Source: Candidatus Zambryskiibacteriota bacterium
GTDB taxonomy: Bacteria > Patescibacteriota > Minisyncoccia > Phycocordibacterales > WO2-35-19
Assembly (NCBI GenBank): GCA_048499675.1
Contig: JASNZL010000006.1
Coordinates: 2,089-66,088 of the forward strand
Direction: 5' to 3'
DNA: 64,000 bases
Shown here: piece after piece, positions 909 to 40,177 of the stretch
How positions within the stretch are numbered: position 1 is the stretch's first letter
Layout: each line of letters opens with the position of its first letter
Translations under genes and position numbers: made by a program
The notes under the pieces: generated by a model
The model's input: the letters and a program-made list of their open reading frames with translations, nothing else
Told to the model about the DNA's origin: nothing
Databases searched by the model: none

Positions 909-1499
909 CTACAATTTGTCTTGAACAAGTTGATACTCTTCTAGAGTTAGCACCCTAGAAAGGGGAACCCCCTCTTCATCCGCAACTCGGCACTTCTCAA
1001 AAATTTGAAGTATCCGGAGTTTTCTCAATAAGTCCTCCCCAGACTTAGCAATCGTCACTTCCACCCTATCATTACCTGTAGGCATATGAAAATTAAAGTG
1101 AAGATGGGGCACACTCTTGGCGTTCCTTGCAGGGTCTCCGGTGCGGACCAACCACACTCCGTCCCCGCCAACACCAAGAATTCTGTTTGCCCATTGCAAC
1201 ACCTCTCGAAAATCAATCCATTCTTCAGGAGTGAGGTCTAAAATGTTTTCAACGTGACGCTTAGACGGCGCCACAAGCTGACATTTCTGACCAGAACGCG
1301 GAGCCACATCATTCTTCCAAAGAAGCCATGACCCATTTTCAAAGAGGATCTTGTTCCGATCTGTGTCTATCTGACAGAACGGACATTTACCCGTCCTGAG
1401 ATCTAGAACGGTTTGTTTGTAATATCGGTAGTTGCTTGTGTTGAACAACCGCCAAATATCCTCCGGCTTTACACCTGGGACAGAAAATTTTGGGTACAT
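909..1499 (-). CDS. HIT-family protein (Ap4A phosphorylase/GalT-like), GC-rich
   Basis: HLHFNFHMP histidine-triad motif and a CPFC motif. GC is about 48-50%, well above the flanks. Confidence 0.55.
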   Translation of the reverse strand: MYPKFSVPGVKPEDIWRLFNTSNYRYYKQTVLDLRTGKCPFCQIDTDRNKILFENGSWLLWKNDVAPRSGQKCQLVAPSKRHVENILDLTPEEWIDFREVLQWANRILGVGGDGVWLVRTGDPARNAKSVPHLHFNFHMPTGNDRVEVTIAKSGEDLLRKLRILQIFEKCRVADEEGVPLSRVLTLEEYQLVQDKL

Positions 1500-2977: not shown

Positions 2978-3035
2978 AGGGATATATTATTTACTTTTTT
3001 GCTCTTTTGCAAGTATGCATTATAATTCCTATATG

Positions 3036-3530
3036 AATAAACCCATAATAAGTCTTATTGCGGCCATAAGCGAAAAACAAAGAGCACTCGGTTTTAAAAA
3101 CCAATTGCTTTGGAAGATAGAAGGTGATTTGCCAAGATTTAAGGCATTAACAAGTGGACACGCTATTATAATGGGAAGAAACACTTATCTCTCTATTGGT
3201 AAACCCCTGCCCGATAGAAAAAACATAGTCATATCCCACACAAGAAAAGAAGAACTTCCTCTAAAAGAAGAGGTTATCGTGGTATCCACCCTTGAAGAAG
3301 CATTTGAAGAAGCGAAAAAAATAGAGAGTGAAGAAATATTTGTCGTTGGGGGTGGAATGGTTTATACAAGCGCAATAAAATTTGCCGACAAGTTGTATCT
3401 CACAATTGTATATGATGAACCAGAGGCAGACACCTTTTTCCCAGATTATAGCGATTTCAAAAAACTAATTTTAAAAGAAGATCATCTTGATAAAAATCCA
3501 CCTTTTTCATATTTAATTTTAGAGAGATAA
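3036..3530 (+). CDS. folA: Dihydrofolate reductase
   Basis: MNKPIISLIAAIS...LLWKIEGDLPRFKALTSGHAIIMGRNTY...VVGGGMVY matches the DHFR fold motifs. The likely start is at the internal Met of the 2970 ORF. Confidence 0.8.
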   Translation, partial: NKPIISLIAAISEKQRALGFKNQLLWKIEGDLPRFKALTSGHAIIMGRNTYLSIGKPLPDRKNIVISHTRKEELPLKEEVIVVSTLEEAFEEAKKIESEEIFVVGGGMVYTSAIKFADKLYLTIVYDEPEADTFFPDYSDFKKLILKEDHLDKNPPFSYLILER

Positions 3531-3601
3531 TGTATTTTTGGATAACTAATTTACGTAACTCATCATTTGATTAAATACTTTCTCTTTGTATAATCAGGCG
3601 A

Positions 3602-4625
3602 ATGAAAAGAAAAAGAGTTTGGGAACTCGGGGAAATACTTCAAAAAATCGCTTCAAAAATAGAAGCGAAGGTTTTGCTTGAACCCAACTGGAAAACAGTT
3701 GGAAGAATTGTTTTCAAAAACGGCAAACATTCATATTTTAGATACAACACACTTGATATAAATCCGATGGGAGCATCTGAAATTGCAAAAGACAAAGATT
3801 ATGCCAACTTTTTCATACGAAAATTAGGTTATAAAACAGTTCCTAAAAAAGCAAGACTTTCTTCTCAAAAGATTGGTGTGTAGAGCAGTAAAGTTCCTGA
3901 TAGAGATAGACCAAGCTTTTTGTATGCAAAAAAAAATTGGCTTTCCTGTTGTAGTAAAACCAAATAGTGGAAGCCAAGGCAAGGATGTTGCTTTTGTTCA
4001 AAACAAAAAAGAGTTTTATAGAGCGCTGAATAAAATATTCCAGCGGGACAGAATTGCCATAGTTCAAAAACCTGTCTATGGCAAGGATTATAGGTTGGTT
4101 GTTTTGGACAACAGAGTCATTTCAGCTTACGAAAGAATTCCCCTATCGATTACAGGCGATGGGAAATCAAATATTTTAGAATTACTAGAGAAAAAAATAA
4201 AAAAGTTTAAGAAAGAAAAAAGAGACGTGAGAATCAAAATTAAAGATGAAAGAATCATAAACAAACTTAAACATCAAAATTTAAATCTACATTCTATTTT
4301 AAATAAAAATAAGAATATTTTCTTGCTCGATAACGCCAATCTCTCTTCTGGTGGTGATTCTATAGACGTAACAAACGTTGTAAGTAAAGAATTTAAAAAC
4401 ATTGCAGTCAGCCTCTCAAAAAAAATGGGTTTAAAACTTTGTGGCGTTGATTTAATTGTAGAAGGAAATATAAGCGACAAACCAAATAAATACTGGATTT
4501 TAGAAATAAATTCTGCTCCAGGTTTAGACAACTATGCGAAATCTGGAAGCAAACAAAAAGAAATTGTAGAAAATTTATATTTGGAGGTTTTGAAAAAGAT
4601 TGGAAAGAATAAAGTTGACTTTTAA
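3602..4625 (+). pseudogene. ATP-grasp ligase (RimK/cyanophycin-synthetase-like), split by a frameshift near 3873-3883
   Basis: Two overlapping ORFs (3602-3883 in frame 2, 3873-4625 in frame 3) together form one ATP-grasp protein: GFPVVVKPNSGSQGKDV, YRLVVLD, ILEINSAPGL. This is either a true frameshift or a sequencing indel. Confidence 0.55.
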
Positions 4626-4688
4626 TAACAAAAATGCTATAATATAGGTAGTGGTGATCTTTGACATGATTTAGAAAGGAGGTAGAAA

Positions 4689-6077
4689 ATGAGGTGGTAT
4701 ATACCCCTCTTCGTCCTTATCATCACGGCGTTCGCGCCGTGGGTGATGGAAATCAACAGGGTTGCAGGCGAACGTGATCGCCTGCAAGAGCAAATCGCCC
4801 CGCTCTACACACCGGATATGATCCGCTCGGAGTTTGAGTGGATTAAGAAGGTGGAGCGACAGTGGAGCGGTCACTCCAATGAAATTAGTTTGCCTGACGA
4901 TCCCTCTGCCTATTGGCAGTATCTGGATCGCAATTACAAGCTAGCGGATGCACTGGAACAGATTATTCGGGACAGGAAGGATTTGCGGTTTTGCGGTGAG
5001 GCTGAGTCTCGTCTCAAATCACTTCGGACCCTTTCCCCGATTAATCTCATCAACAACAACTTCACCATGAAGTTCGGCGCAGAAAAAATGATCTCTAGTA
5101 AGCCTACCGTTGCCTACTTCATTGAAAAGGAGAGGGTGGGTCGGCAGGAGATCAAAAATGACGCCATGGCCAAGTTCAGACGAGGATACCTTATAAGTAT
5201 CCCGCTGATGTTCTTGGTATTCGCCTTGATACTCTCTAACCTCGGTTTGATGATTTGGGTAGAAATACCCCGCATCATCATCGCGGCTTTGTTTTGGCCC
5301 GTTGCCTTGTTCGTCTATCCGCGCGATGTGCGGAGAAGCGAACAAGTCAAAAGAGCGATGCAATTTGTCGCTCAATTGGCCTCGGTCGCTGTCGGATTCT
5401 TCGGTGGTGGCATGACCAATATGGTGAAGGCGCAGGTCTCACCGAACGGCAAGAGCCAGACCCAATCTGGCAAAAAGGGCAACTCGACTTTTGGCTACGG
5501 CCTTGAGTTGTATCCCCAATCTTCCGGCATCGACGCCGGACTCTTGGTGAGCCCTTGGTACGCGCATTCGCATGCTCTACCAAATGGTTTCACCCTCTCC
5601 GGTTTCGGATTTGTGGAAGCTGGTGAACGCAAAAGCCAGTTATTCACGAACCACTCAATGAACTTGTCCCACGCGAAAGCCTTTGGAGCAATGTTCACAG
5701 TCGAGACCGGCGGGACAAGCGCGGGGAGTTTTGTTCAGGTAGGTCCTCGGGTTAACTTGGTCAAGATTCCGGGCTTCCCACAACAGGCAACCAAGATTGT
5801 GAAGTCGGTGGTTGCTGGCTCGTTCTGGCGAATCCGAGGCCCGACGCATTATCAGGAATGGTACCTGTCATGGGTCTCGGAGGAGGCGAAGCTCCCCGGT
5901 GGCTGGAAACTTTCCAGCGAAGGGATGATGCGCTTCCGGCCTGGACCTAGGGCGACGATAGGCCAGCCTCAGCTCATCCTTCGACATCCGAGAATTCGGC
6001 ATGTCATGCTCATGACGGAATTCTGGATCATCGGCACCCAGCCGACTATCCGTTTCGGCGTTCAGTTCGCAAATTAA
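4689..6077 (+). CDS. Hypothetical membrane protein encoded in a GC-rich (about 55%) foreign segment
   Basis: Strong RBS aaggaggtagaaaATG. There is an N-terminal TM helix and a central double TM. GC3 is very high, unlike the 33%-GC flanks. A hairpin terminator follows. Confidence 0.6.
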   Translation: MRWYIPLFVLIITAFAPWVMEINRVAGERDRLQEQIAPLYTPDMIRSEFEWIKKVERQWSGHSNEISLPDDPSAYWQYLDRNYKLADALEQIIRDRKDLRFCGEAESRLKSLRTLSPINLINNNFTMKFGAEKMISSKPTVAYFIEKERVGRQEIKNDAMAKFRRGYLISIPLMFLVFALILSNLGLMIWVEIPRIIIAALFWPVALFVYPRDVRRSEQVKRAMQFVAQLASVAVGFFGGGMTNMVKAQVSPNGKSQTQSGKKGNSTFGYGLELYPQSSGIDAGLLVSPWYAHSHALPNGFTLSGFGFVEAGERKSQLFTNHSMNLSHAKAFGAMFTVETGGTSAGSFVQVGPRVNLVKIPGFPQQATKIVKSVVAGSFWRIRGPTHYQEWYLSWVSEEAKLPGGWKLSSEGMMRFRPGPRATIGQPQLILRHPRIRHVMLMTEFWIIGTQPTIRFGVQFAN

Positions 6078-6084
6078 CACACAA

Positions 6085-6113
6085 GGGCTCTGCTTACAAA
6101 AGCAGAGCCCTTT
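6085..6113 (+). terminator. Rho-independent terminator
   Basis: gggctctgctt-acaaa-agcagagccc followed by ttt. Confidence 0.7.
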
Positions 6114-6159
6114 CCTCATCTTGTATTTATTTGTCTTCTTAATATATAATAATCTGTCC

Positions 6160-6591
6160 ATGGTAAAAAATCCAAAAGGAGTTCTAGATGGGTATGATTC
6201 ATGTATTTTATACAACCCAATGAAAGATGAGGTGGATTTTAATGAGCCAAATTTTCCTATTGAGATTCCTCGTAAAAAAATAATACTATCTCAAAATCCC
6301 GAAGTAAATCCTTTTTTGGAAGCAGAAAGATGCGTCAAAGAGTTTACAGCAGAACAAGTTTTTGTTCTGGTCCCCGGTAGAAGATTTGATATTTTTGGCA
6401 ACAGAAAAGGAAGAGGTCTTGGTTGGTATGATAGATTTCTATCAAAAATCCCAGAGAACTGGACAAAAATTGGTGTTCTATATGAAAAAGATTTAAGCAA
6501 AGAAAATCTAAAGATAAATTCTTGGGACCAAAAAATGGATATGCTTGTAATTAGAAAAGAAGACGAGTGGTTGGTAAAAAAACTTAAATAA
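6160..6591 (+). CDS. 5-formyltetrahydrofolate cyclo-ligase (MTHFS) family
   Basis: VLVPGRRFDIFGNRKGRGLGWYDRFL is the MTHFS nucleotide-binding signature (GxGxGYYD). It lies in folate-gene context. Confidence 0.65.
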   Translation: MVKNPKGVLDGYDSCILYNPMKDEVDFNEPNFPIEIPRKKIILSQNPEVNPFLEAERCVKEFTAEQVFVLVPGRRFDIFGNRKGRGLGWYDRFLSKIPENWTKIGVLYEKDLSKENLKINSWDQKMDMLVIRKEDEWLVKKLK

Positions 6592-6593
6592 AA

Positions 6594-6620
6594 AAACACT
6601 TTTATAAGTGTTTTTTTATT
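6594..6620 (+). terminator. Rho-independent terminator
   Basis: aaacacttttataagtgttt followed by a T-run. Confidence 0.6.
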
Positions 6621-6811
6621 TAAGTTTTATTTAAGATATTATCCTTTTACTTCAACCCACGCATAATTTTCTGCTGAAAATTTGCGCAATTCTTACAGAA
6701 TCTGTCCACTCATTGGATTTTTCTTCAAATAATCTCAATGAGTCTTGCGAAGCTCCAAGTATTCGCTTCTCACCCACCTCAGCTCGTCAGCTTCCGGTCG
6801 GTCGATGTTTC

Positions 6812-8451: not shown

Positions 8452-8636
8452 AGATGTAAATTAAAAATTAAAAAATCAAAATTTAAAATTATAAGTTTAT
8501 AAAGTTACCCACCAATCCGCAAATGCATGCGAATTATAGCGAATAAGGACATTGTATAACAAAACCTATTAAAAAACCCCTTGCGGGGCCGTTTTATTAA
8601 GTTACACATTAATTATATACCCGTTCAAAAATAAAG

Positions 8637-9680
8637 TCAAGTTCCTGTATCCGTCCAGCACTTTTGAGACTCTGGGACTGTTAATTTGGAACAAATATAC
8701 TGCAAAGGAGAGAGCATGTGAAGAGCATAGTGGGGACGACGAGTGTTGTACCAAATGAGCCAGTCAATTAGTTTCTTGTTAAATTCAGGTACATTATCTC
8801 GAAGAAGTGATCTGTGATAAACAAGGAACTCTTCATTTAGACTACGATTAAATCTCTCCACATGAGCGTTTTCTTTAGGTGATCTTGGATGAGTATTGAA
8901 GTGTAGACCTGTTTCTTCCACTGCTTGGTGGAAGTGGAGAGCAAACTCTGATCCATTGTCAGTCTGGACATCTTTGGGACACAAAGGTAGAACCTGACGA
9001 GTTTTGGAGAGAAAATCGGCAGCACTTCTTGATCCATGATTAGTATAGGCTGTAGCAAAAGCAGTACGTTTTTCGATATCTATGCCAGTCAAAATGTATC
9101 GCTTCACTCCATCCACAAATCGTACAACAGTATCAACTTCCAACACTCTATATCCTTTGGGTCTCCTGAGCTTCTTTCTAGGCTTGTATACTCGCTCAAT
9201 TAGCTTTCCAGTCTTTCCTGAGACGGAGAGTTTTGTGTTTTTTGGTAACTTACCTTGAAACTTTAAGTCATTAATCATTCGACCAACAGTTGAGGGTGAA
9301 AGGTCTGCCACCTTCTCATTTTTCATCATGACAGAAAGTTTGTCCTTCGAGAGACGAGGAGTTTGTCCTCTTTCTTTCAAAATGAAAGCTTCCACCGCTT
9401 CCGGTACGGTTCTTTTTCTTCTGTGTATTGGAGCTGTACTTTTCTTGTTCAGATTCTCTAATTTTCCTAGGTTAGCTTTTAATTTTTTCTGCCATCGGAA
9501 AAGAGTTGGTCTAGAAACCTTGAAAGCTTCCTTTGTAGCTTCCATACTATACTTCTTCCAGAAAGAGAGTATTTTAGCTCTTTCTTTTGCTTGTTCGGTA
9601 ATCATATACCGAAATCGTATCACTCTTTCCCAAGTACTTTTAAATCCTCTGGTTCCCCTAAATTTGTTGAAAAATGCCAT
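8637..9680 (-). CDS. DDE (rve integrase-core) transposase, IS481-family-like
   Basis: N-terminal HTH, rve core with DNGSEF, and HVERFNRSL...RPH in the C-terminus. The ORF is 347 aa. Confidence 0.75.
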   Translation of the reverse strand: MAFFNKFRGTRGFKSTWERVIRFRYMITEQAKERAKILSFWKKYSMEATKEAFKVSRPTLFRWQKKLKANLGKLENLNKKSTAPIHRRKRTVPEAVEAFILKERGQTPRLSKDKLSVMMKNEKVADLSPSTVGRMINDLKFQGKLPKNTKLSVSGKTGKLIERVYKPRKKLRRPKGYRVLEVDTVVRFVDGVKRYILTGIDIEKRTAFATAYTNHGSRSAADFLSKTRQVLPLCPKDVQTDNGSEFALHFHQAVEETGLHFNTHPRSPKENAHVERFNRSLNEEFLVYHRSLLRDNVPEFNKKLIDWLIWYNTRRPHYALHMLSPLQYICSKLTVPESQKCWTDTGT

Positions 9681-9725
9681 ACAAAACTCTTAAACCAGAG
9701 TCTCATATGTTTCTGAACTTATGCA
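8646..9725 (-). mobile_element. IS481-like insertion sequence, intact copy 1
   Basis: A 1080-bp unit is shared with a second copy at 30373-31456. The imperfect terminal inverted repeats are TGTATCCGTCC / GGAACTTATGCA. It contains a single DDE transposase ORF. Confidence 0.7.
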
Positions 9726-9736
9726 CTTATCAAAAT

Positions 9737-10558
9737 CTATTTAACTTCGTAAGTAATACTTACTTGTGACATTATTCTTGTTTCTCCTTGTGGTAATTCT
9801 GCTCTCACTGGGGCAACTGATGATTTAAGCATATCTCCCCCCATTCCCATTTCTCCGTAATAAGGCATTGGCATATAATTTCCGCTTTCATTGAAGTAAA
9901 GCATCTTACCCATTCTTACCCCTAATTGTTTTGACAATTCTTTTGCTTGCTCCTTTGCTTTGCTTATAGCTTCTTCTCTTGCTTTGGCAATAAACTCTTC
10001 TCTATTATCCACAGTAAATTCTAGTCCACTAATATTGCTTACATCTGTTGAGCCGATTTTTGTCACCAAATCTGGAGCCTTGTCTGTATCTCTAACCTTT
10101 ACTGTAATTGTTTGATTAACCTCATATCCCTTCAAAACATTTCTACCTGGAGGACAAACAACACCAACCATAGCTATGCAATATTGCTGTTCCCATTCAT
10201 ATTTTGGATATACATTATAATTTGTTGTTTTGATATCTCTTTCTTCAACTCCTGATTCTCTCACAGCAGAAAGTGCTCTGTTCATTTTTTCGTCCAATTT
10301 TTCTTGAGCCTCCGCCACAGTCCCTCCAACTTCTATAATAGAAAAGTTAAACGTAGCAATATCCGGTATTGCAAATGCTTCCCCTTCTCCGCTCACAGTA
10401 ATCGTTGATTGTGGATAAACTTCTTTACCAACCGATGGTAATTTCTTAAATCCTATTAAAACTTGAACAAAAAGAAAAATTGAAAACAAAACCAACGATA
10501 TAACAAGCCATTTTGTTATTTTTTGACCAGAACCAACACCTAAAAATTGATCTAACAT
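9737..10558 (-). CDS. SIMPL-domain protein (DUF541, YggE-like), membrane-anchored
   Basis: N-terminal TM, and a SIMPL-like repeat architecture with a lysine-rich helix (AKAREEAISKAKEQAKELSKQLG). Confidence 0.6.
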   Translation of the reverse strand: MLDQFLGVGSGQKITKWLVISLVLFSIFLFVQVLIGFKKLPSVGKEVYPQSTITVSGEGEAFAIPDIATFNFSIIEVGGTVAEAQEKLDEKMNRALSAVRESGVEERDIKTTNYNVYPKYEWEQQYCIAMVGVVCPPGRNVLKGYEVNQTITVKVRDTDKAPDLVTKIGSTDVSNISGLEFTVDNREEFIAKAREEAISKAKEQAKELSKQLGVRMGKMLYFNESGNYMPMPYYGEMGMGGDMLKSSVAPVRAELPQGETRIMSQVSITYEVK

Positions 10559-13371: not shown

Positions 13372-14043
13372 CTACGCCACGAGTGTCTGCGGAACGACAA
13401 TCCGAGGACGGCTAGCGCCATTCCAACCGTCGTCACGCGAGAACCGGAGGGCGACGGCGTCAGGCCTCTCGCCGGAATCCAGACTCACGCGAGCAACGAA
13501 GAATTTGCGATTTTCCTTGAACAGGAAAAAAGTGGCATATCCTTCCTTCCGAAGCCAGTCCTTGTGGTCTTCCACAAAAGCAATGATTTGCTCCTGTGTC
13601 AGACAAAGGTCTTCCCGTTCGCGACCCAACAAGCTGTCGAAGATGGTTTCAAAATCACCATCCTCGACCATCTCGTAGACCAGAACGGGCGTTTCTGGTT
13701 TCGCTTCTCCTGGAACATCCAAACCCCAGTTTTTGAAGTCGGAGTCGATGCCCCAAGTGAAGATGTCCGTGGCCTGGGCGATGGTTCTGTGCCCACTCGT
13801 GGCGCGGATAGTGATTTGCTTCCCGCCCGAGATGAGGCGGAGAATGTTCGCCTTTCCTGTTGGAATATCTCCAATCATTTTGCCCTCAATCACATTTTGC
13901 AATGTGGAGAGAAGAGCTTCCGGATTATAATTTCCGACTTTGGCACGGCGGATAAGCTCGGGGATTCTGCTTTCCAACAAAGTTTCCCACTCTTCCGCTG
14001 TGGGTTTCCTTTTCATACCGTCTGGGACAACGCGGGTCGTCAT
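13372..14043 (-). CDS. Hypothetical protein, GC-rich (about 52-55%) orphan next to IS30
   Basis: The ORF is open throughout and its GC content and codon usage are foreign to the host. No recognisable motif. The start is taken at MTTRVVPDG. Confidence 0.45.
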   Translation of the reverse strand: MTTRVVPDGMKRKPTAEEWETLLESRIPELIRRAKVGNYNPEALLSTLQNVIEGKMIGDIPTGKANILRLISGGKQITIRATSGHRTIAQATDIFTWGIDSDFKNWGLDVPGEAKPETPVLVYEMVEDGDFETIFDSLLGREREDLCLTQEQIIAFVEDHKDWLRKEGYATFFLFKENRKFFVARVSLDSGERPDAVALRFSRDDGWNGASRPRIVVPQTLVA

Positions 14044-15470: not shown

Positions 15471-15680
15471 ACTCTTTAGTGCATCAGCTAGTCGTATCTC
15501 ACCACTTCTTTTTTATGTCTTTCACCTTTTTATTATATGACTTGAGCCACCTCGCAGGATCGGTCACGGATAATTTCCTCATCGTCACTCGGAAATTTCC
15601 GCGACCCCGCCTCGCGACCAGCTTTGCTAAGCTGGTACCCGCTCCGACTTTCGATCCTGCAATAAAACTACTTTTTATTG

Positions 15681-15753
15681 AGCCACCTCGCAGGATCGAA
15701 CTGCGGACCTGCGGTTTACGATACCGCCGCTCTACCAACTGAGCTAAGGTGGC
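15681..15753 (-). tRNA. tRNA-Thr (anticodon CGU)
   Basis: Cloverleaf GCCACCT/AGGTGGC acceptor, D-arm GCTCAGTTGGTAGAGC, anticodon stem GCGGT/ACCGC with loop ATCGTAA, and T-arm CTGCG-TTCGATC-CGCAG. Confidence 0.8.
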
Positions 15754-15952
15754 AAATTTTACGATAAATGAGCCGTTGATCGGGATTGGTGTCAACTCAC
15801 ATCAATATTTTTATTCGTAATACTCTAAAAATATTGTGTGGTTCCTACCCGGCCTCGCCCGTCTCGCTTAGCTCGACATGGCTCCGGCTTTCAACCTCCG
15901 AACGCAAAGCAAGCAGTTTCTTTGCTTCAACACCTCACTCACTTTGTTCGTG

Positions 15953-19746: not shown

Positions 19747-20499
19747 TTACATATTTAAATACCTCCTTCTTTCTTTATCTTCAAATTTCTCTATTGCATA
19801 TCTTAGAGTGGTTCTAGGTATTTGCCTTATATTTTCTTTCAAAAAAACCTTTAATTCTTTTTGACTAACGTTTTTGCCCACCTCCCTTAACATCCAACCC
19901 ATCGCCTTGTGAATCAAATCATGTTTATGATTAAAAAGTTTTTTGCAAATCACAAAAATATCTTTTGATTCACCTTTTTTTATAAAAGCATATGTAGAAA
20001 CAATAGCAATCCTTTGCTCCCACATATTTTTTGATGATATTAGTTTGTAAATAATTTTTCTGTCTTTTTTGTCGACTAGGTAACTGCCAAGTATTTGATA
20101 AGCAGAGGAATCTACCAAATCCCAATTATTGATATATTTTGTATTTTTTAGATAAAAATTAATTATTCTTTCTTTTTCAGATTCCCTATTTGTTTCTTGG
20201 AATTTTGAAACTAACACAAATAAGGCAATTAACCTTATTTCATGAATTTTATTTTTTAGAAGTGTGGAGACTTTTTTGATATTAATACTTTTGTGTTTTT
20301 TTGCAAATTTACTTAAATCTGGAACTGATATTCCTAAAAATATATCTCCTTCGCCATATTCCCCTTCGCCCGTTTTAAAATAACGAGCAAGGATTTTGGC
20401 TTTACTTGCGTTTCTTTGCTTTATTATTTCTTTCTCAATTTTATTGACAGTGATTTCCATGATTAATTTCTCACCAACTCTCCACCGCTTGCTTCCCAC
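19747..20499 (-). CDS. DNA alkylation repair enzyme (AlkC/AlkD-like HEAT-repeat glycosylase)
   Basis: Helical repeat protein with NNWDLVDSSAYQILG, which matches the pfam DNA_alkylation signature. Confidence 0.6.
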   Translation of the reverse strand: MGSKRWRVGEKLIMEITVNKIEKEIIKQRNASKAKILARYFKTGEGEYGEGDIFLGISVPDLSKFAKKHKSINIKKVSTLLKNKIHEIRLIALFVLVSKFQETNRESEKERIINFYLKNTKYINNWDLVDSSAYQILGSYLVDKKDRKIIYKLISSKNMWEQRIAIVSTYAFIKKGESKDIFVICKKLFNHKHDLIHKAMGWMLREVGKNVSQKELKVFLKENIRQIPRTTLRYAIEKFEDKERRRYLNM

Positions 20500-30022: not shown

Positions 30023-30319
30023 TTACTTCTGAGAAGCCGGACAAGCAGAGCTTCGGTATTCTTGAATGGTAACAGTTCCCTGCATAAGACCCCAAGAGCT
30101 GTCTTCCTTGAACTGGTAGGTCTCCGTTTTTTCTCCCTCATGCATGTCCCGAGTAAGAACCCAAAGATTGGACTCCTTCCACGTGACCACAACAAGTTTC
30201 TTGCACGCTTGCAAGTCAATCTTGGAGGATCCACCGTATTGACGAGCCACCTGCTGTTGGGTGCACCCACTCAAAAGAGCACACAACATAATAATTGAAA
30301 AACAAACAAGCTTTTTCAC
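30023..30319 (-). CDS. Small lipoprotein (lipobox LLSGC), GC-rich (about 50%) foreign gene
   Basis: Signal peptide plus LSGC lipobox. GC is far above the flanks. Confidence 0.55.
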   Translation of the reverse strand: MKKLVCFSIIMLCALLSGCTQQQVARQYGGSSKIDLQACKKLVVVTWKESNLWVLTRDMHEGEKTETYQFKEDSSWGLMQGTVTIQEYRSSACPASQK

Positions 30320-30372
30320 AACTCACCTCCTATCTTAAATATTAGCATATAATAAATTTTATGTCAAGCATT

Positions 30373-31456
30373 TGTATCCGTCCAGCACTTTTGAGACTCT
30401 GGGACTGTTAATTTGGAACAAATATACTGCAAAGGAGAGAGCATGTGAAGAGCATAGTGGGGACGACGAGTGTTGTACCAAATGAGCCAGTCAATTAGTT
30501 TCTTGTTAAATTCAGGTACATTATCTCGAAGAAGTGATCTGTGATAAACAAGGAACTCTTCATTTAGACTACGATTAAATCTCTCCAAATGAGCGTTTCT
30601 TTAGGTGATCTTTGGATGAGTATTGTAGGGGACCTGTTTCTTCCACTGCTTGTGGAAGTGGAGAGCAAAACTCTGATCCATTGTCAGTCTGGACATCTTT
30701 TGGGACACAAAGGTAGAACCTGACGAGTTTTGAGAGAAAATCGGCGCATCTCTGATCCATGATTAGTATAGGCTGTAGCAAAAGCAGTACGTTTTTTCGA
30801 TATCTATGCCAGTCAAAAATGTATCGCTTCACTCCATCCACAAATCGTACAACAGTATCAACTTCCAACACTCTATATCCTTGGGTCTCCTGAGCTTCTT
30901 TTCTAGGCTTGTATACTGCTCAATTAGCTTTCCAGTCTTTCCTGAGACGGGAGGTTTCCCTCGTTTTTTGGAACTTCATTTGAAACTTTAAGTCATTAAT
31001 CATTCGACCAACAGTTGAGGGTGAAAGGTCTGCCACTTTCATTTTTCAACATGACAGAAAGTTTTTCCTTCGAGAGACGAGGAGTTTGTCCTCTTCTTTT
31101 CAAAATGAAAGCTTCCAACGCTTCCGGTACGGTTCTTTTTTTTTCTTCTGTGTATTGGAGCTGTACTTTTCTTTTTGTTCAGATTCTTAATTTTCTCCTA
31201 GGTTAGCTTTTTAATTTTTCTGCCATCGGAAAAAGAGTTGGTCTAGAAACCTTGAAAGCTTCCTTTGTAGCTTCCATACTATATGCCTCTTCCAGAAAGA
31301 GAGTATTTTAGCTCTTTCTTTTGCTTGTTCGGTAATCATATACCGAAATCGTATCACTCTTTCCCAAGTATTTTAAACTCTGGTTCCCCTAAATTTGTTG
31401 AAAAATGCCATACAAAAACTTTAAACCAGAGTCTCATATGTTTCTGAACTTATGCA
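30373..31456 (-). pseudogene. Decayed second copy of the IS481-like element (transposase broken by many homopolymer indels), flanked by a 5-bp GCATT target duplication
   Basis: About 95% identical to 8646-9725 but carrying more than 10 single-base indels. The ORF track shows only fragments (30364-30588, 30575-30871). GCATT occurs on both flanks. Confidence 0.75.
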
Positions 31457-36897: not shown

Positions 36898-37384
36898 TAA
36901 TAGAGATTATCACATTTGTGTGAAATAGAAAATATTTTATTTAAGCTAGATATTCAAAGAATATTCCTTGGCGCGAGTGATCCTCTTTCGCTTAAGCTAC
37001 AGTGGGACGCAGTAGGATTTGGTCACACATATTTTTCTCGCCGTCGCTCGAAAAATTGTTCGACCCCGCCTCTCTTCTGAACTTTGCTAAGTCCAGCCTC
37101 CGCTTCGCTTCGGGCGCTGCGGCTTTCAAGTCCCATCGTGCTTAGCATAAGCACCAAAAGAAAATCCCAGTTTTTACTGGGATTTTCTTTTGTCGCTGCG
37201 CGAGTGATGGGAATCTTTTCCTCAACTCAAAATTTTTTCAGTCAAAAAATTTTGGTCTGGGCACCGGCTCATGGAAATTTTTTGCTAAAAATTTCACATT
37301 CCGCCGTTCAAGTCCCATACGCAAAGCAAGCAGTTGCTTTGCTCACTCGCTTAAACAAAAAGCCCCCAGAGGGGGTTTTGTTTG

Positions 37385-37658
37385 CGCGAGTGATGGGACT
37401 TGAACCCACGGCCTTCCGCGTGCACTGATCCACTATTTTCATAATGGCGTGGACTATATCTTCGCCATGAGCATTGAGCTTTTAGGTGCTTTGGTATCTA
37501 GTCTCTACGGCGCTCTCGCCTCAATTAGGCAAGTTCCCTCGGTGTTCGCATATCTTTCGACTTAGCCTTCACCGATATCCCAAAGAGTTTCAATTCGTCT
37601 TTCAACGAAAAGCTGCAATTCTACAGGCGGACGCTCTAACCAGCTGAGCTACACCCGC
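37385..37658 (-). tRNA. tRNA-Asp (GUC) interrupted by a 200-nt group I intron in the anticodon loop (between nt 35 and 36)
   Basis: 5' exon GCGGGTG-TA-GCTCAGCTGGTTAGAGC-G-TCCGC-CTGT. 3' exon CAC-GCGGA-AGGCC-GTGGGTTCAAGTCCCAT-CACTCGC-G. The reconstituted loop is CTGTCAC, with G73, C38 and G10 (Asp identity elements). The intron ends in G and carries a P7-like GTAGAGACTAGAT. Confidence 0.7.
37423..37622 (-). other. Group I intron (about 200 nt) within tRNA-Asp
   Basis: An internal guide GCAG can pair with the exon end CUGU (U·G at the splice site). The terminal nucleotide is G. It shares a GTAGAGACTAGAT core motif with the intron at 39867-40138. Confidence 0.6.
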
Positions 37659-38322
37659 ACTTTTATATATCTCTCAAAAATCACCCTTTTCCTACCAAGA
37701 AATAATTTTGAGGTATATAGTCCATTATACATAAAACTATATAATTTTAAAGAGCCATAAATGCTATATGTTAAACGATAAAAATTACCTTTCCCTTTCT
37801 TTAATACTCCTTTTTTTATACCATGTTTCTCTAATTTATCATTTATACTTTCCAGAAAGTTTTTTGAACAAGAAGTGAAAACTGTTTGTATAGATAAAGT
37901 ACTTGTTCTCCTGTTCTTGTGGATTAAACCACTCCACACATTACCATCCCCATCAAAATACCCCCTTACAAAATGGCAAAAAATTTATCTGGAATATTTG
38001 GAACTGCTAGACTTTTGGTTTTGTTTTGTCTCATTCCCAAATCGTAGAGATCGTTATACATTTCCTTACTACCAATTTGCAATCTATAGCTAATTTTATC
38101 TTCTTTGCGTTTTTTTACTCTTAAACTTATTTTATGTTCCGATCCAATTGTTTTTTTAATCTCCATTAGTAATTTTTTATCGTTAATATGGATATTCCAA
38201 AAATGGGCACCCCTTTTGTTTAAGGTCATATATCCGTCAGCAGCAAAAAAACCTAAAATATAAGCCATCTCCGGTGTCCATTTTTTAAAGAAATTTTTGT
38301 TTACATTTTTATATATCGGCAT
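37649..38322 (-). pseudogene. LAGLIDADG homing endonuclease, free-standing, split into two ORFs (37966-38322 and 37649-37939)
   Basis: The N-terminal ORF has AYILGFFAADGYM (the LAGLIDADG motif) and the C-terminal ORF carries the second half-domain. The split lies at 37940-37965. The 3' end abuts or overlaps the tRNA-Asp 5' end. Confidence 0.65.
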
Positions 38323-38970
38323 GATTTAATAATATCTCGTGACAGTATAGTTTACTATCCGTAATGTTTATAGCTTTTAAACTTTCTGATAAAAAATTAC
38401 CGCTTCACTACCAATCCAACAGGCGGGAAGGTTGCAGAGCTACTGCGGTGTAAGTACAATTAATATATATTAATTAATCTAAATTATGGAACCTAATGAT
38501 CAAAAACTGATTGAGTTGGAGAAAAAAGTTGATGCGATTTATGAATCCGTAGAAAAAACCAGAAAATATTTTCTCTGGACCTTGATTATTACTCTCGCAA
38601 TAGTTGTTTTACCACTAATTGCTATGATGTTTGTAATCCCCTCTTTTATAAGCAGTTATACAAGCACTTTGGATACTTTGGGATTGTGATTATTTTGTAC
38701 TTGCACAGCAAAACGAAGTGAAGTGGTGCTGGGGGTGGGGATCGGTCACAAATAAATTGCTTCGCAATTTTTCGTCTTCTTACAGAAGCTGTTCACTCAT
38801 TGGGCTTTTTATTTCGCATAGCTCATAAAAATTCTCAATGAGTCTTGCGCTTGGGCCCCATCCCAAGCTCACCCCAGCTCACCTGTTTCTCTTTGCTCAA
38901 CATGGCTCCACTTTTCGATCCACAACGCAAATCAAGCAGTTGATTTGCTCTGAAAAAAATACTTCGTATT

Positions 38971-39047
38971 TGGTGCCGGGGGTGGGGATCGAACCCACGA
39001 CCTGAGGTTTATGATTCCTCTGCTCTACCAACTAAGCTACCCCGACA
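38971..39047 (-). tRNA. tRNA-Met/Ile2 (anticodon CAU), intronless, with encoded CCA
   Basis: GTCGGGG/CCCCGGC acceptor, D-arm GCTTAGTTGGTAGAGC, anticodon loop ATCATAA, T-arm CGTGG-GTTCGAT-CCCAC, and 3' CCA. Confidence 0.75.
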
Positions 39048-39061
39048 ATTCTCATAATTTA

Positions 39062-39748
39062 TCATATTTTAGAACGACTTGCCATATAATCTATGGCCCC
39101 AAGTATTTTATTTTTTAAGAATAATCCCCTCCTAACCTTAATCCTTAAAACACCTCTATAAGTAGCAATATTTTTAAAAGAAGCTTTTTTAAGCTTTGAT
39201 TTTATTAGAGTCGTCTTTGAAAACTGATTTTCTTTTATATTTAGATATTTTATCCAAAAATTTTTTATTTTTTCCTTTTCAATCTTAAATATATCATTTA
39301 AAGACAAGCGAAATATTAAATCATTTTTTGATACATTATTTTTTTGAAGCCATTTTATATAGAACCTTATCATTTGCGGATTGCTGTTTGTAAAGCCCAT
39401 TTCATCATTACTTTCTTTGTACCCCTCGCCCCAATATAAACCGAGCCCAACCATCAATATGTCTCTATCAGTAATTTTACCGACCATTTTTACACCTTTA
39501 TTTTTCTGATCAATAGTATTATGTATTCTTTGTGCCCTTCTCTTTTCTGAATATCTTAACAAACCCTTGATAGACCTTTCCTTTTTATTAAATTTCATCA
39601 TTTTTATAATAGATGTTGATAGTTTTATGTCTCTACACCAAAAACTGACAGTAGAAAAACTCACATTTAATTTTTTTGCTATCGCCCTAACTGTCTCTCC
39701 TTTTAATCGTAATCTCTTTGCCTCACTTTTTATACCTATATTATGCAT
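39062..39748 (-). CDS. LAGLIDADG-family homing endonuclease (LGLYWGEG variant) with an N-terminal HTH, free-standing between two tRNA-Met genes
   Basis: ILMVGLGLYWGEGYK is a LAGLIDADG-type motif. The N-terminal region RAIAKKLNVSFSTVSFW is HTH-like. Confidence 0.55.
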   Translation of the reverse strand: MHNIGIKSEAKRLRLKGETVRAIAKKLNVSFSTVSFWCRDIKLSTSIIKMMKFNKKERSIKGLLRYSEKRRAQRIHNTIDQKNKGVKMVGKITDRDILMVGLGLYWGEGYKESNDEMGFTNSNPQMIRFYIKWLQKNNVSKNDLIFRLSLNDIFKIEKEKIKNFWIKYLNIKENQFSKTTLIKSKLKKASFKNIATYRGVLRIKVRRGLFLKNKILGAIDYMASRSKI

Positions 39749-39834: not shown

Positions 39835-40177
39835 TGCGGGGTAGAGTAATAGTAACTCGTCAGGCTCAAATATGGTGGGCCCCCTATTGAGAGATTAATA
39901 GGAGCAAATTCGCCAAATTCGGAGAAATCCTCTCCACTAAAAGTGGAAAGACAATTCCGAGCTAAATTCCTTTGAACTTGTCCTGCTTGCCCGACATAGT
40001 TTTAACAACGTTGGGAGCGAAAATCAAAGGATAAATGTGTAGAGACTAGATGGTGAAATTCCAAGTTTAAATTTGGAATATGGTATAGTCCAGACCCCAA
40101 ATCCCAATCATGGGAGCATTGAAAAATGTAGTGGTAAGCATAACCTGAAAATTTTGGTGCGAATCCAAACTCCGCAA
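39835..40177 (+). tRNA. tRNA-Met (CAU) interrupted by a 272-nt group I intron between U33 and C34
   Basis: 5' exon TGCGGGG-TA-GAGTAATAGTAACTC-G-TCAGG-CT. 3' exon CATAA-CCTGA-AAAT-TTTGG-TGCGAAT-CCAAA-CTCCGCA-A. The spliced loop is CTCATAA. The intron starts after U, ends in G, has an internal guide GGCC opposite the exon GGCU, and a P7-like GTAGAGACTAGATGG. Confidence 0.7.
39867..40138 (+). other. Group I intron (272 nt) in tRNA-Met
   Basis: See the tRNA call above. There is no ORF inside. Confidence 0.6.

Follow-up and report, generated by a model that had tools for sequence, protein, structure and literature searches.

Porins of the KdgM/NanC type (4pr7, 4fqe and 2wjq) are built from 12 antiparallel strands in ~200 residues, with a Sec-type signal directly upstream, and a similar arrangement, with a putative signal peptide, is predicted for the product of a gene that we have analysed in a 64-kb stretch of DNA from a Candidatus Zambryskiibacteriota bacterium, a member of the Patescibacteria (the whole of this stretch is referred to here as ‘the window’). 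The gene is an open reading frame (ORF) of 462 codons, at positions 4689-6077 of the forward (+) strand. Unlike KdgM and NanC, the encoded protein has no sequence-level membership of a Pfam or NCBIfam family, its barrel stands behind a 245-residue helical membrane module, such that the signal peptide is internal, and the C-terminus of its family reads ...GVQF-x-[KN] instead of ending in an aromatic residue. It also differs in where it is found: Patescibacteria are generally described as monoderm and, to our knowledge, are held to lack both an outer membrane and BAM, the barrel-assembly machinery. The joining of a barrel to a second module that ties it to another layer of the envelope is familiar from the OmpM/SLH-porins of diderm Firmicutes and Deinococcus, from intimin and invasin, and from autotransporters; here, in contrast, the partner is predicted to be an integral helical domain of the cytoplasmic membrane rather than an SLH, LysM or passenger module, and the two parts may be separated by cleavage at a VKA↓Q site.

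At the level of the gene, there are likenesses to horizontally acquired islets, or ‘morons’, in the atypical GC content and codon usage, the possession of a promoter and terminator of its own, the absence from a near-identical strain and the variety of loci. The differences are that the site in the window is without integrase, transposase, att repeats or tRNA, that the composition persists under vertical inheritance and stops at the ends of the ORF, and that the arrangement of codons appears to be selected for pairing in the mRNA. Long-lived mRNAs for envelope proteins, such as ompA and S-layer transcripts, are stabilised by stem-loops in their 5′ untranslated regions (UTRs). The barrel gene resembles these in its monocistronic layout, in the strength of its promoter, Shine-Dalgarno sequence and terminator, in encoding a predicted envelope protein and in carrying extra RNA structure; it is unlike them in that the excess pairing is spread over the entire coding sequence and shifts from one ortholog to the next. 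We found no description in the literature of the barrel family, or of GC-rich structured ORFs in Patescibacteria. The account that we favour, and to which we would give about an even chance of being correct, is that this is a mobile accessory cassette of Patescibacteria, that it encodes the precursor of a membrane-anchored, porin-like barrel, and that its GC content is kept by selection for a structured mRNA.

An open frame of 462 codons at ~50% GC is far beyond chance. A protein search with its product returned 19 relatives (32-61% identity); alignments with 18 of these cover 96% or more of the query, and the remaining one is a 274-aa fragment. A profile search of 1.84 billion representative proteins gave 151 proteins. 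The 462-codon frame is kept in all orthologs, with amino-acid identities of 32-76% and the C-terminus as the best-conserved part, while identity at 4-fold degenerate sites is near-random (0.19-0.39); conserved amino acids combined with 4-fold sites close to saturation point to a protein under purifying selection. We considered, and rejected, the presence of a conserved RNA or of an antisense gene overlapping the frame, given the near-saturated synonymous sites and a structure conservation index of only ~0.13. The best Rfam match to the region has an E-value of only 0.35.

An AlphaFold2 model, built on a 19-sequence alignment, has a mean pLDDT (predicted local distance difference test) of 79.6 and, together with hydropathy, suggests a modular precursor, all parts of which are encoded on the + strand. 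First comes a transmembrane helix (about residues 4-22) and a helical domain (about residues 23-158), together at 4698-5162 and with pLDDT values of 80-95; in the model itself, the N-terminal helix runs over residues 4-36 and the helical bundle that follows extends to about residue 151. Modelled alone, this N-terminal module reached a pLDDT of 84.7, and a Foldseek search of the PDB with it found no fold relative (best E = 0.14). A hydrophobic helical hairpin follows (about residues 159-211; 5163-5321), with modelled helices at 159-184, 190-201 and 203-209; it is bordered by clusters of positive charge, and the sequences RLRVR and DIRR are conserved in the family alignment. The preliminary description of this DNA, made from the letters alone, had proposed an N-terminal and a central double transmembrane segment. 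These hydrophobic segments are real, and a further one, at residues 214-239, can be added. The latter belongs to a segment resembling an internal Sec-type signal peptide (about residues 212-248; 5322-5432), with a charged n-region, a hydrophobic helix and the motif VKA↓Q, of which K247-A248-Q249 are invariant in 19 sequences. Beyond it lies a low-complexity linker rich in K, S, Q and G (5433-5483) that is predicted to be disordered (pLDDT <50 over residues 230-263), and then the putative C-terminal, porin-like, 12-stranded β-barrel (residues 266-462; 5484-6074).

The twelve long strands of the predicted barrel occupy residues 266-461, with block-mean pLDDT values mostly between 80 and 88 (range 71-88), and most of them present one hydrophobic face. 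Foldseek ranks KdgM (4pr7 and 4fqe) and NanC (2wjq) first in the PDB, with E-values of 2e-5 to 5.5e-5 and target TM-scores of 0.53-0.56, followed by intimin, invasin, autotransporter barrels and general porins; phage-borne outer-membrane protein (OMP) barrels are matched in BFVD, the viral structure library. The earlier view that the protein has no recognisable motif needs to be amended accordingly at the level of the fold, where a 12-stranded porin-like barrel is predicted behind an internal signal peptide, and stands as far as sequence libraries go. Scans of the 462-aa protein against Pfam, NCBIfam and PHROGs returned nothing at threshold, a profile search against PDB sequences found no match, and remote homologs scanned against Pfam likewise gave nothing; among OMP profiles, the best was OMP_b-brl_2 at a sub-threshold E of 0.07-0.28, and no member of alignment A5 reaches any OMP family at threshold.

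Remote homologs help in reading this arrangement. Those of ~210-235 aa consist of a barrel alone, preceded by a conventional N-terminal signal peptide that ends in ..AxAQ, and these signal peptides align with the fourth hydrophobic helix and VKAQ of the window protein, which suggests that the latter is a membrane module fused ahead of a signal peptide and barrel. We infer that the barrel may be exported and cleaved after A248. Other remote relatives (~540 aa) combine the same N-terminal module with larger barrels that end in a terminal Phe. The protein would thus be a new architecture that incorporates a known fold, one that was not to be expected in this phylum.

The composition of the gene sets it apart from its surroundings. 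The window as a whole has a GC content of 35.2%; the ORF has 52.7% (0.52/0.42/0.64 at first, second and third codon positions), so that the GC excess first described at 55% is real, if slightly lower. GC content at third positions (GC3) compares with 0.25-0.34 in the adjoining genes and ~0.27 for the resident genome. In a 300-nt profile, the GC content climbs at ~4650 (0.29 to 0.51) and drops again at ~6100 (0.51 to 0.37), in agreement with the ends of the ORF. Codons are shifted towards G and C in all classes (NNC 0.59 vs 0.24, NNG 0.63 vs 0.27, CCG 0.42 vs 0.10), and CGN accounts for 0.72 of Arg codons vs 0.20. The gene also has a full set of expression signals. A sigma-70-type promoter (TTGACT-17-TGcTATAAT, with extended -10 TG and 11/12 consensus matches) lies at 4615-4643 (+), where its -35 box overlaps the final codons of an ATP-grasp gene, and the same TTGACTTT...TGnTATAAT arrangement stands upstream of orthologs at 7 other loci. 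A Shine-Dalgarno sequence, AAGGAGG, can be read at 4676-4682 (+), 6 nt upstream of the ATG, with AAAGGAG-type counterparts at orthologous loci, and a repeat search located a terminator hairpin at 6083-6112 (+), with a perfect 13-bp stem, a 4-nt loop and a weak T tail; equivalent GC hairpins followed by T runs occur at the 3′ ends of orthologs. What the preliminary description said of the GC jump at the ORF boundaries, of codon usage and GC3 unlike those of the neighbours, and of a Shine-Dalgarno sequence and terminator belonging to the gene itself, is in each case borne out.

So abrupt a change of composition could in principle arise by assembly, through a GC-rich fragment being joined into an AT-rich contig, and a chimera of this sort had been raised as something to exclude. 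We regard it as vanishingly improbable: an independent Logan assembly of run SRR21762701 (L011) contains window positions 3977-6771 with 0 mismatches and covers both junctions, the GC changes coincide with the ends of the ORF and lie within a segment whose promoter and terminator flanks are AT-rich, and the same arrangement is found at 8 other loci from unrelated samples.

Evidence that the gene is an accessory one comes from comparison with L023 (run SRR33243635), the closest available relative of the window. Alignment (blastn and MAFFT) shows 94.5% identity to window positions 3008-4613, as a mosaic of 83-100% per 100 nt, and 99.8% identity to 6209-6771. Between these, the 1596 bp of the window at 4614-6208 are replaced in L023 by 50 unrelated bp, with no homology between the two, and the ATP-grasp gene is followed 11 bp on by a 5-formyl-tetrahydrofolate cyclo-ligase gene. 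The strain-variable segment of the window holds the promoter, ORF and terminator and, in addition, an alternative 3′ end of the ATP-grasp gene (the last ~7 codons) and an alternative 5′ end of the cyclo-ligase gene (the first ~20 codons); all of its non-ORF parts are AT-rich. A segment that carries alternative ends of both flanking genes implies that the event was a replacement, most simply by homologous recombination with a relative in which the cassette was already present at, or already absent from, this locus. Site-specific insertion was considered and rejected: the insertion site has no flanking direct or inverted repeats, no att repeats, no tRNA and no integrase or transposase. At three other loci, a tRNA gene lies directly upstream of the cassette (Gly-CCC at 9221-9292 in L001 and at 9744-9815 in L012, and Asn at 9265-9339 in L003), and no integrase was found at any of the three. 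As a separate observation, the ATP-grasp gene (cyanophycin-synthetase-like; 3602-4625, +) is split in the window into two ORFs by small indels at 3845-3905, and is intact (336 aa) in L023; the split copy is either a pseudogene or an assembly error.

Remnants of the gene tell of decay as well as movement. The window genome is related to L014, a metagenome-assembled genome (MAG) of the Paceibacterota, with syntenic type IV pilus clusters and 73-79% amino-acid identity in the main genes. This sister genome keeps only the last 73 codons (9995-10222; 78% amino-acid and 79% nucleotide identity; GC 0.56), at a different locus adjoining msrB, comF and pilM, with small ORFs in place of the missing 5′ part. 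A second, independent remnant lies at ~5219-5377 of L022, and both of these 5′-truncated copies, which retain the last 50-73 codons, are still GC-rich. Identity at 4-fold sites between the L014 remnant and the window gene is 0.58 (n=31), compared with 0.26-0.36 for the housekeeping genes of the same two genomes, which hints at a more recent ancestry for the two copies than for the genomes carrying them, with the caveat that the 3′ end of the gene is generally more constrained. Across the family, orthologs occupy at least 6 different neighbourhoods.

The source from which the gene came is suggested by who else carries it. All 12 of the distinct genomic contexts examined look like genomes of the Candidate Phyla Radiation (CPR), with small genes, ribosomal operons, type IV pilins, SmpB/FtsH and similar, and the three matches in named genomes are to Patescibacteria, Saccharibacteria and Paceibacterota MAGs. 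The preliminary description had pointed to recent horizontal acquisition, possibly from a high-GC host or partner organism. The first part holds in so far as the gene is an accessory insert with a recent gain or loss (the empty site in L023, and the L014 remnant elsewhere); the foreign donor is not supported. Such a donor, for instance a diderm with outer-membrane proteins, would account for a barrel fold that is typical of diderm outer membranes and is also carried by phages of Gram-negative bacteria, for codon usage resembling that of a ~55% GC genome, and for the absence of the segment from a near-identical strain. We nevertheless consider it very unlikely. No homolog in a non-Patescibacteria context was found among 5.8 billion clustered proteins and 1.84 billion representatives, and none was found in phage and plasmid collections (by tblastn) or in a scan of IMG/VR; the closest relative of the window protein (L029, 61% identity) is itself on a CPR-type contig, and no donor lineage of matching composition was seen outside the recipient clade, all homologs lying in Patescibacteria-type contigs. 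The 5′UTR is, moreover, nearly identical between the window and L029, the promoter and 5′UTR are common to Patescibacteria orthologs, and promoter, extended -10 and Shine-Dalgarno sequence are arranged alike at all of the orthologous loci, which argues that the immediate source was another Patescibacterium; that the swapped segment includes AT-rich regulatory DNA and alternative ends of the flanking genes indicates that the immediate donor had the same gene order. The window copy, then, probably arrived recently from another Patescibacterium.

The transcript of the gene is predicted to be exceptionally structured. Three 300-nt pieces fold with z-scores of -4.9, -4.4 and -4.8 against 200 dinucleotide shuffles, and in 200-nt windows the window gene has a mean dinucleotide-shuffle z of -3.1, with values of -2.0 to -4.5 in six orthologs. 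Neighbouring genes taken as controls, among them GC-matched ones (~50% GC) from higher-GC Patescibacteria, range from -1.0 to +0.5. A stricter null permutes synonymous codons, leaving protein, codon usage and GC3 unchanged. Under it, seven orthologs give z-scores of -4.9 to -8.3, with 0/40 shuffles as stable, L029 gives -13, and the window gene -5.5 to -7.2 in three separate runs; controls range from +1.6 to -2.0, and the median of all 69 genes in the window is -0.43. Structure beyond the codon-shuffled expectation indicates that synonymous sites of the barrel gene are under selection for pairing. In 7/7 orthologs, the sense strand has more structure than the antisense. Hairpins with perfect stems of 6 bp or longer number 39 over eight orthologs vs ~16 expected, although a clear enrichment of such short hairpins, taken alone, is limited to the window and L001 copies. 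Over six orthologs, the structure conservation index is 0.13 on average, reaching 0.46 only in the first 120 nt, which implies that no fixed RNA fold is conserved and that each lineage has its own hairpins.

GC peaks in AT-rich genomes usually stem from large structured non-coding RNAs, and the strongly negative folding z in a GC-rich region might be read as one of these, with an open frame present by chance. This we regard as barely credible, given a frame of 462 codons kept in all orthologs over the identities noted above, synonymous sites near saturation, a confident AlphaFold2 fold obtained from the alignment, the low structure conservation index and the lack of any Rfam match below E = 0.35.

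Elevated GC content is a property of the family as a whole. Every ortholog is raised above its own flanks (gene 0.48-0.56, flanks 0.35-0.49; GC3 0.48-0.64), and close orthologs from eight lineages have a GC content of 0.48-0.53, none of them being fully host-like. The rise is confined to the ORF, as the co-transferred promoter and 5′UTR are AT-rich and the mobile segment is longer than the GC-rich part. A telling pair is L001 and L012, in which the flanks of the gene are orthologous, with tRNA-Gly(CCC) and a metallo-β-lactamase-fold gene upstream and a cupin gene downstream. Identity at 4-fold sites is 0.39 for the barrel gene, compared with 0.34-0.57 for the flanks, and this likeness to the flanks indicates vertical inheritance; even so, its GC3 is 0.55/0.52 against 0.29-0.40 in the neighbours, such that the fading of atypical composition expected with residence is not seen. 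The preliminary description had held that a GC-rich allele syntenic in all related AT-rich genomes would speak against recent acquisition, and in this pair of genomes, at least, such an allele exists. L003 and L006, which have upstream SmpB-FtsH genes in common, show the same trend, with GC3 of 0.61/0.48 vs ~0.40/0.25 in neighbours. Translational selection was considered as a cause of the GC and set aside as unlikely, since NNG, CCG, TCG and CGG codons are also enriched and GC3 is not higher at conserved residues.

A purely historical origin of the GC has also to be weighed: the home of the family would be Patescibacteria of ~50-55% GC, with repeated transfer into AT-rich relatives and slow drift thereafter, and the RNA structure would be a separate trait or one that came with the gene. 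Some relatives and remnants are indeed found in Patescibacteria contigs of higher GC (flanks of 0.49 in L016, 0.49 in L022 and 0.46 in L018), a distant subfamily member, L015, is as AT-rich as its host (GC3 0.23), and the window copy, for which a recent gain or loss is directly documented, surpasses all others in GC3 excess and shares with the L014 remnant more 4-fold sites than housekeeping genes do. We hold this account to be possible, if rather doubtful. It sits poorly with the vertical inheritance in L001 and L012, both with GC3 ~0.17-0.19 above their neighbours, with the absence of a host-like close ortholog in eight lineages, with a rise that ends at the ORF ends when the co-transferred promoter and UTR are AT-rich, and with the excess of structure over codon shuffles in 8/8 orthologs, which signifies selection at synonymous sites. 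A GC excess that is limited to the ORF and independent of the host is best explained by selection for structure, which it fits better than history alone; the causal step from pairing selection to GC content is, for its part, one that we infer.

Several observations weigh against the account that we favour, and we set them out together. GC3 in the window copy is 0.52 even at third positions predicted to be unpaired, and it exceeds its host by +0.37, around double the excess of the orthologs, suggesting that part of its GC may be historical. The contrast in GC3 between paired and unpaired sites is equal in the shuffles, and so offers no proof that pairing drives GC; an Akashi-type test, in which GC3 was again no higher at conserved residues, was negative. 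Structure and GC are also uncoupled elsewhere in the window: the AT-rich ORF at 19747-20499 (-) has a z of -6.4, and a GC-rich lipoprotein ORF (described below) has one of -0.4, so that strong ORF-wide structure is not confined to the GC-rich genes of the window. (The former ORF, which matches the barrel gene in its excess of mRNA structure, has 29% GC and no tandem repeats; neither a signal peptide nor a transmembrane segment is predicted in its 250-aa product.) The difference between the window and L023, being a comparison of two genomes, fits gain or loss alike. Lastly, the barrel is a prediction, with no Pfam or NCBIfam OMP model at threshold, and a transmembrane barrel has no evident place in a phylum held to be without outer membrane and BAM; no BamA-type gene was seen in the flanks examined, the analysis having covered 64 kb of this genome.

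With these points in mind, we propose a scheme for how such a cassette might work. It is a self-contained unit of expression, comprising consensus promoter, strong Shine-Dalgarno sequence, ORF and terminator, within the accessory genome of an AT-rich lineage of Paceibacterota (Patescibacteria/CPR). The precursor would have three parts: an N-terminal membrane module made up of the transmembrane helix, a helical domain of ~135 residues and the hydrophobic hairpin; the internal signal peptide; and the barrel, following its linker. We suggest that the signal peptide takes the barrel across the cytoplasmic membrane, with a cut by signal peptidase being possible, and that the barrel then acts at the cell surface or at the interface with a host. 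The cassette itself appears to move among related Patescibacteria by homologous recombination, in keeping with its different loci, its absence from a near-identical strain and its decay to 3′ remnants. Finally, long-term selection at synonymous sites for an extensively base-paired mRNA, with G and C at third positions supplying the pairing, would best account for the ORF-limited GC content seen across the family; the purpose of this pairing may be longevity of the mRNA or control of its translation.

Three further ORFs in the window had been said to share the anomalous composition. All are indeed GC-elevated (GC/GC3 of 0.46/0.47 at 909-1499, 0.53/0.60 at 13372-14043 and 0.47/0.51 at 30023-30319), but they are a mixed set, including a member of a family of diversity-generating retroelement (DGR) targets and a phage-type lipoprotein. 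The family of 13372-14043 (-), an ORF that abuts an IS30-like gene, has 278 matches, only in Patescibacteria-type contigs. Its homolog in L026 (5348-6706) is a DGR target with a template/variable repeat pair, bAvd and a reverse transcriptase gene: the 3′ variable repeat lies at ~5850-5975, and the template repeat, with AAC codons at variable sites, at ~6283-6405, where it adjoins bAvd near RVT_1. This homolog has GC 0.57 and GC3 0.64 in a genome of 36.5% GC, whereas the reverse transcriptase and Avd genes are AT-rich. The codon-shuffle z is about -3 in both the window and L026 members, whose 5′UTRs and 3′ hairpins are almost identical; no template repeat or reverse transcriptase for 13372-14043 was found within the 64-kb window. 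That the barrel gene might itself be a DGR target was considered and rejected, as no part of 4689-6077 is repeated in the window and there is hence no template repeat. At least two unrelated Patescibacteria-restricted families therefore share an ORF-limited GC excess across different hosts.

The ORF at 909-1499 (-) is HIT-like, with an HLHFNFH motif discerned by eye, a codon-shuffle z of -4.5 and no match in Pfam, NCBIfam or PHROGs. That at 30023-30319 (-) encodes the small lipoprotein mentioned above, which matches phrog_12728 (E 1e-25) and is ~50% identical to lipoproteins of large Bacillus/Brevibacillus phages; it has no excess RNA structure and adjoins a decayed insertion sequence (IS) copy.

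Other features of the window can be recorded more briefly. A transposase gene of the rve (integrase-core) family, encoding 347 aa, lies at 8627-9725, and a decayed second copy, 92-100% identical in patches, at 30354-31456, 21.7 kb away. GC-rich stretches at 37021-37430, 15562-15926 and 38906-38949 contain common repeats (families D10 and D16) and adjoin tRNA-Thr and tRNA-Met; they have no match in Rfam, and the 114-aa ORF at 37084-37428 is probably spurious, this region being more likely RNA. A group I intron (39857-40116, +; Rfam, 60.8 bits) is found not far from tRNA-Met at 38971-39046. Nearby ORFs at 37966-38322 (-) and 39062-39748 (-) resemble, by eye, LAGLIDADG homing endonucleases, and the surroundings of the intron showed neither rRNA nor any other host gene that could be recognised.

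A bolder possibility, which we think unlikely, is that the barrel, whether exported and cleaved at VKA↓Q or left tethered, inserts into the outer membrane of a diderm host as a nutrient pore or point of attachment, or else that the cassette or its mRNA works inside the host. If the former were true, the epibiont would gain a private nutrient pore or attachment point; if the latter, a promoter and Shine-Dalgarno sequence of universal type, GC-rich codons like those of the host and a nuclease-resistant, heavily paired transcript would all serve a function within the host. In either version, ORF-limited, GC-rich and hyper-structured genes, such as those for the barrel, the DGR target and the HIT-like ORF, would mark a toolkit for host interaction in Patescibacteria.

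More generally, it is common practice to take GC-rich islands in AT-rich genomes for foreign DNA; should the pattern described here prove to be general, detection of transfer from composition would misclassify such genes, and there would exist a class of Patescibacteria mRNAs under strong selection for structure. The predicted combination of a porin-type barrel, a Sec signal and a novel module of the cytoplasmic membrane recurs in a phylum that is thought to be single-membraned and without barrel assembly. Either some Patescibacteria may have an outer layer that has gone unrecognised, or the barrel may come to lie in the membrane of a host, and both alternatives bear on how these ultra-small epibionts feed and attach.

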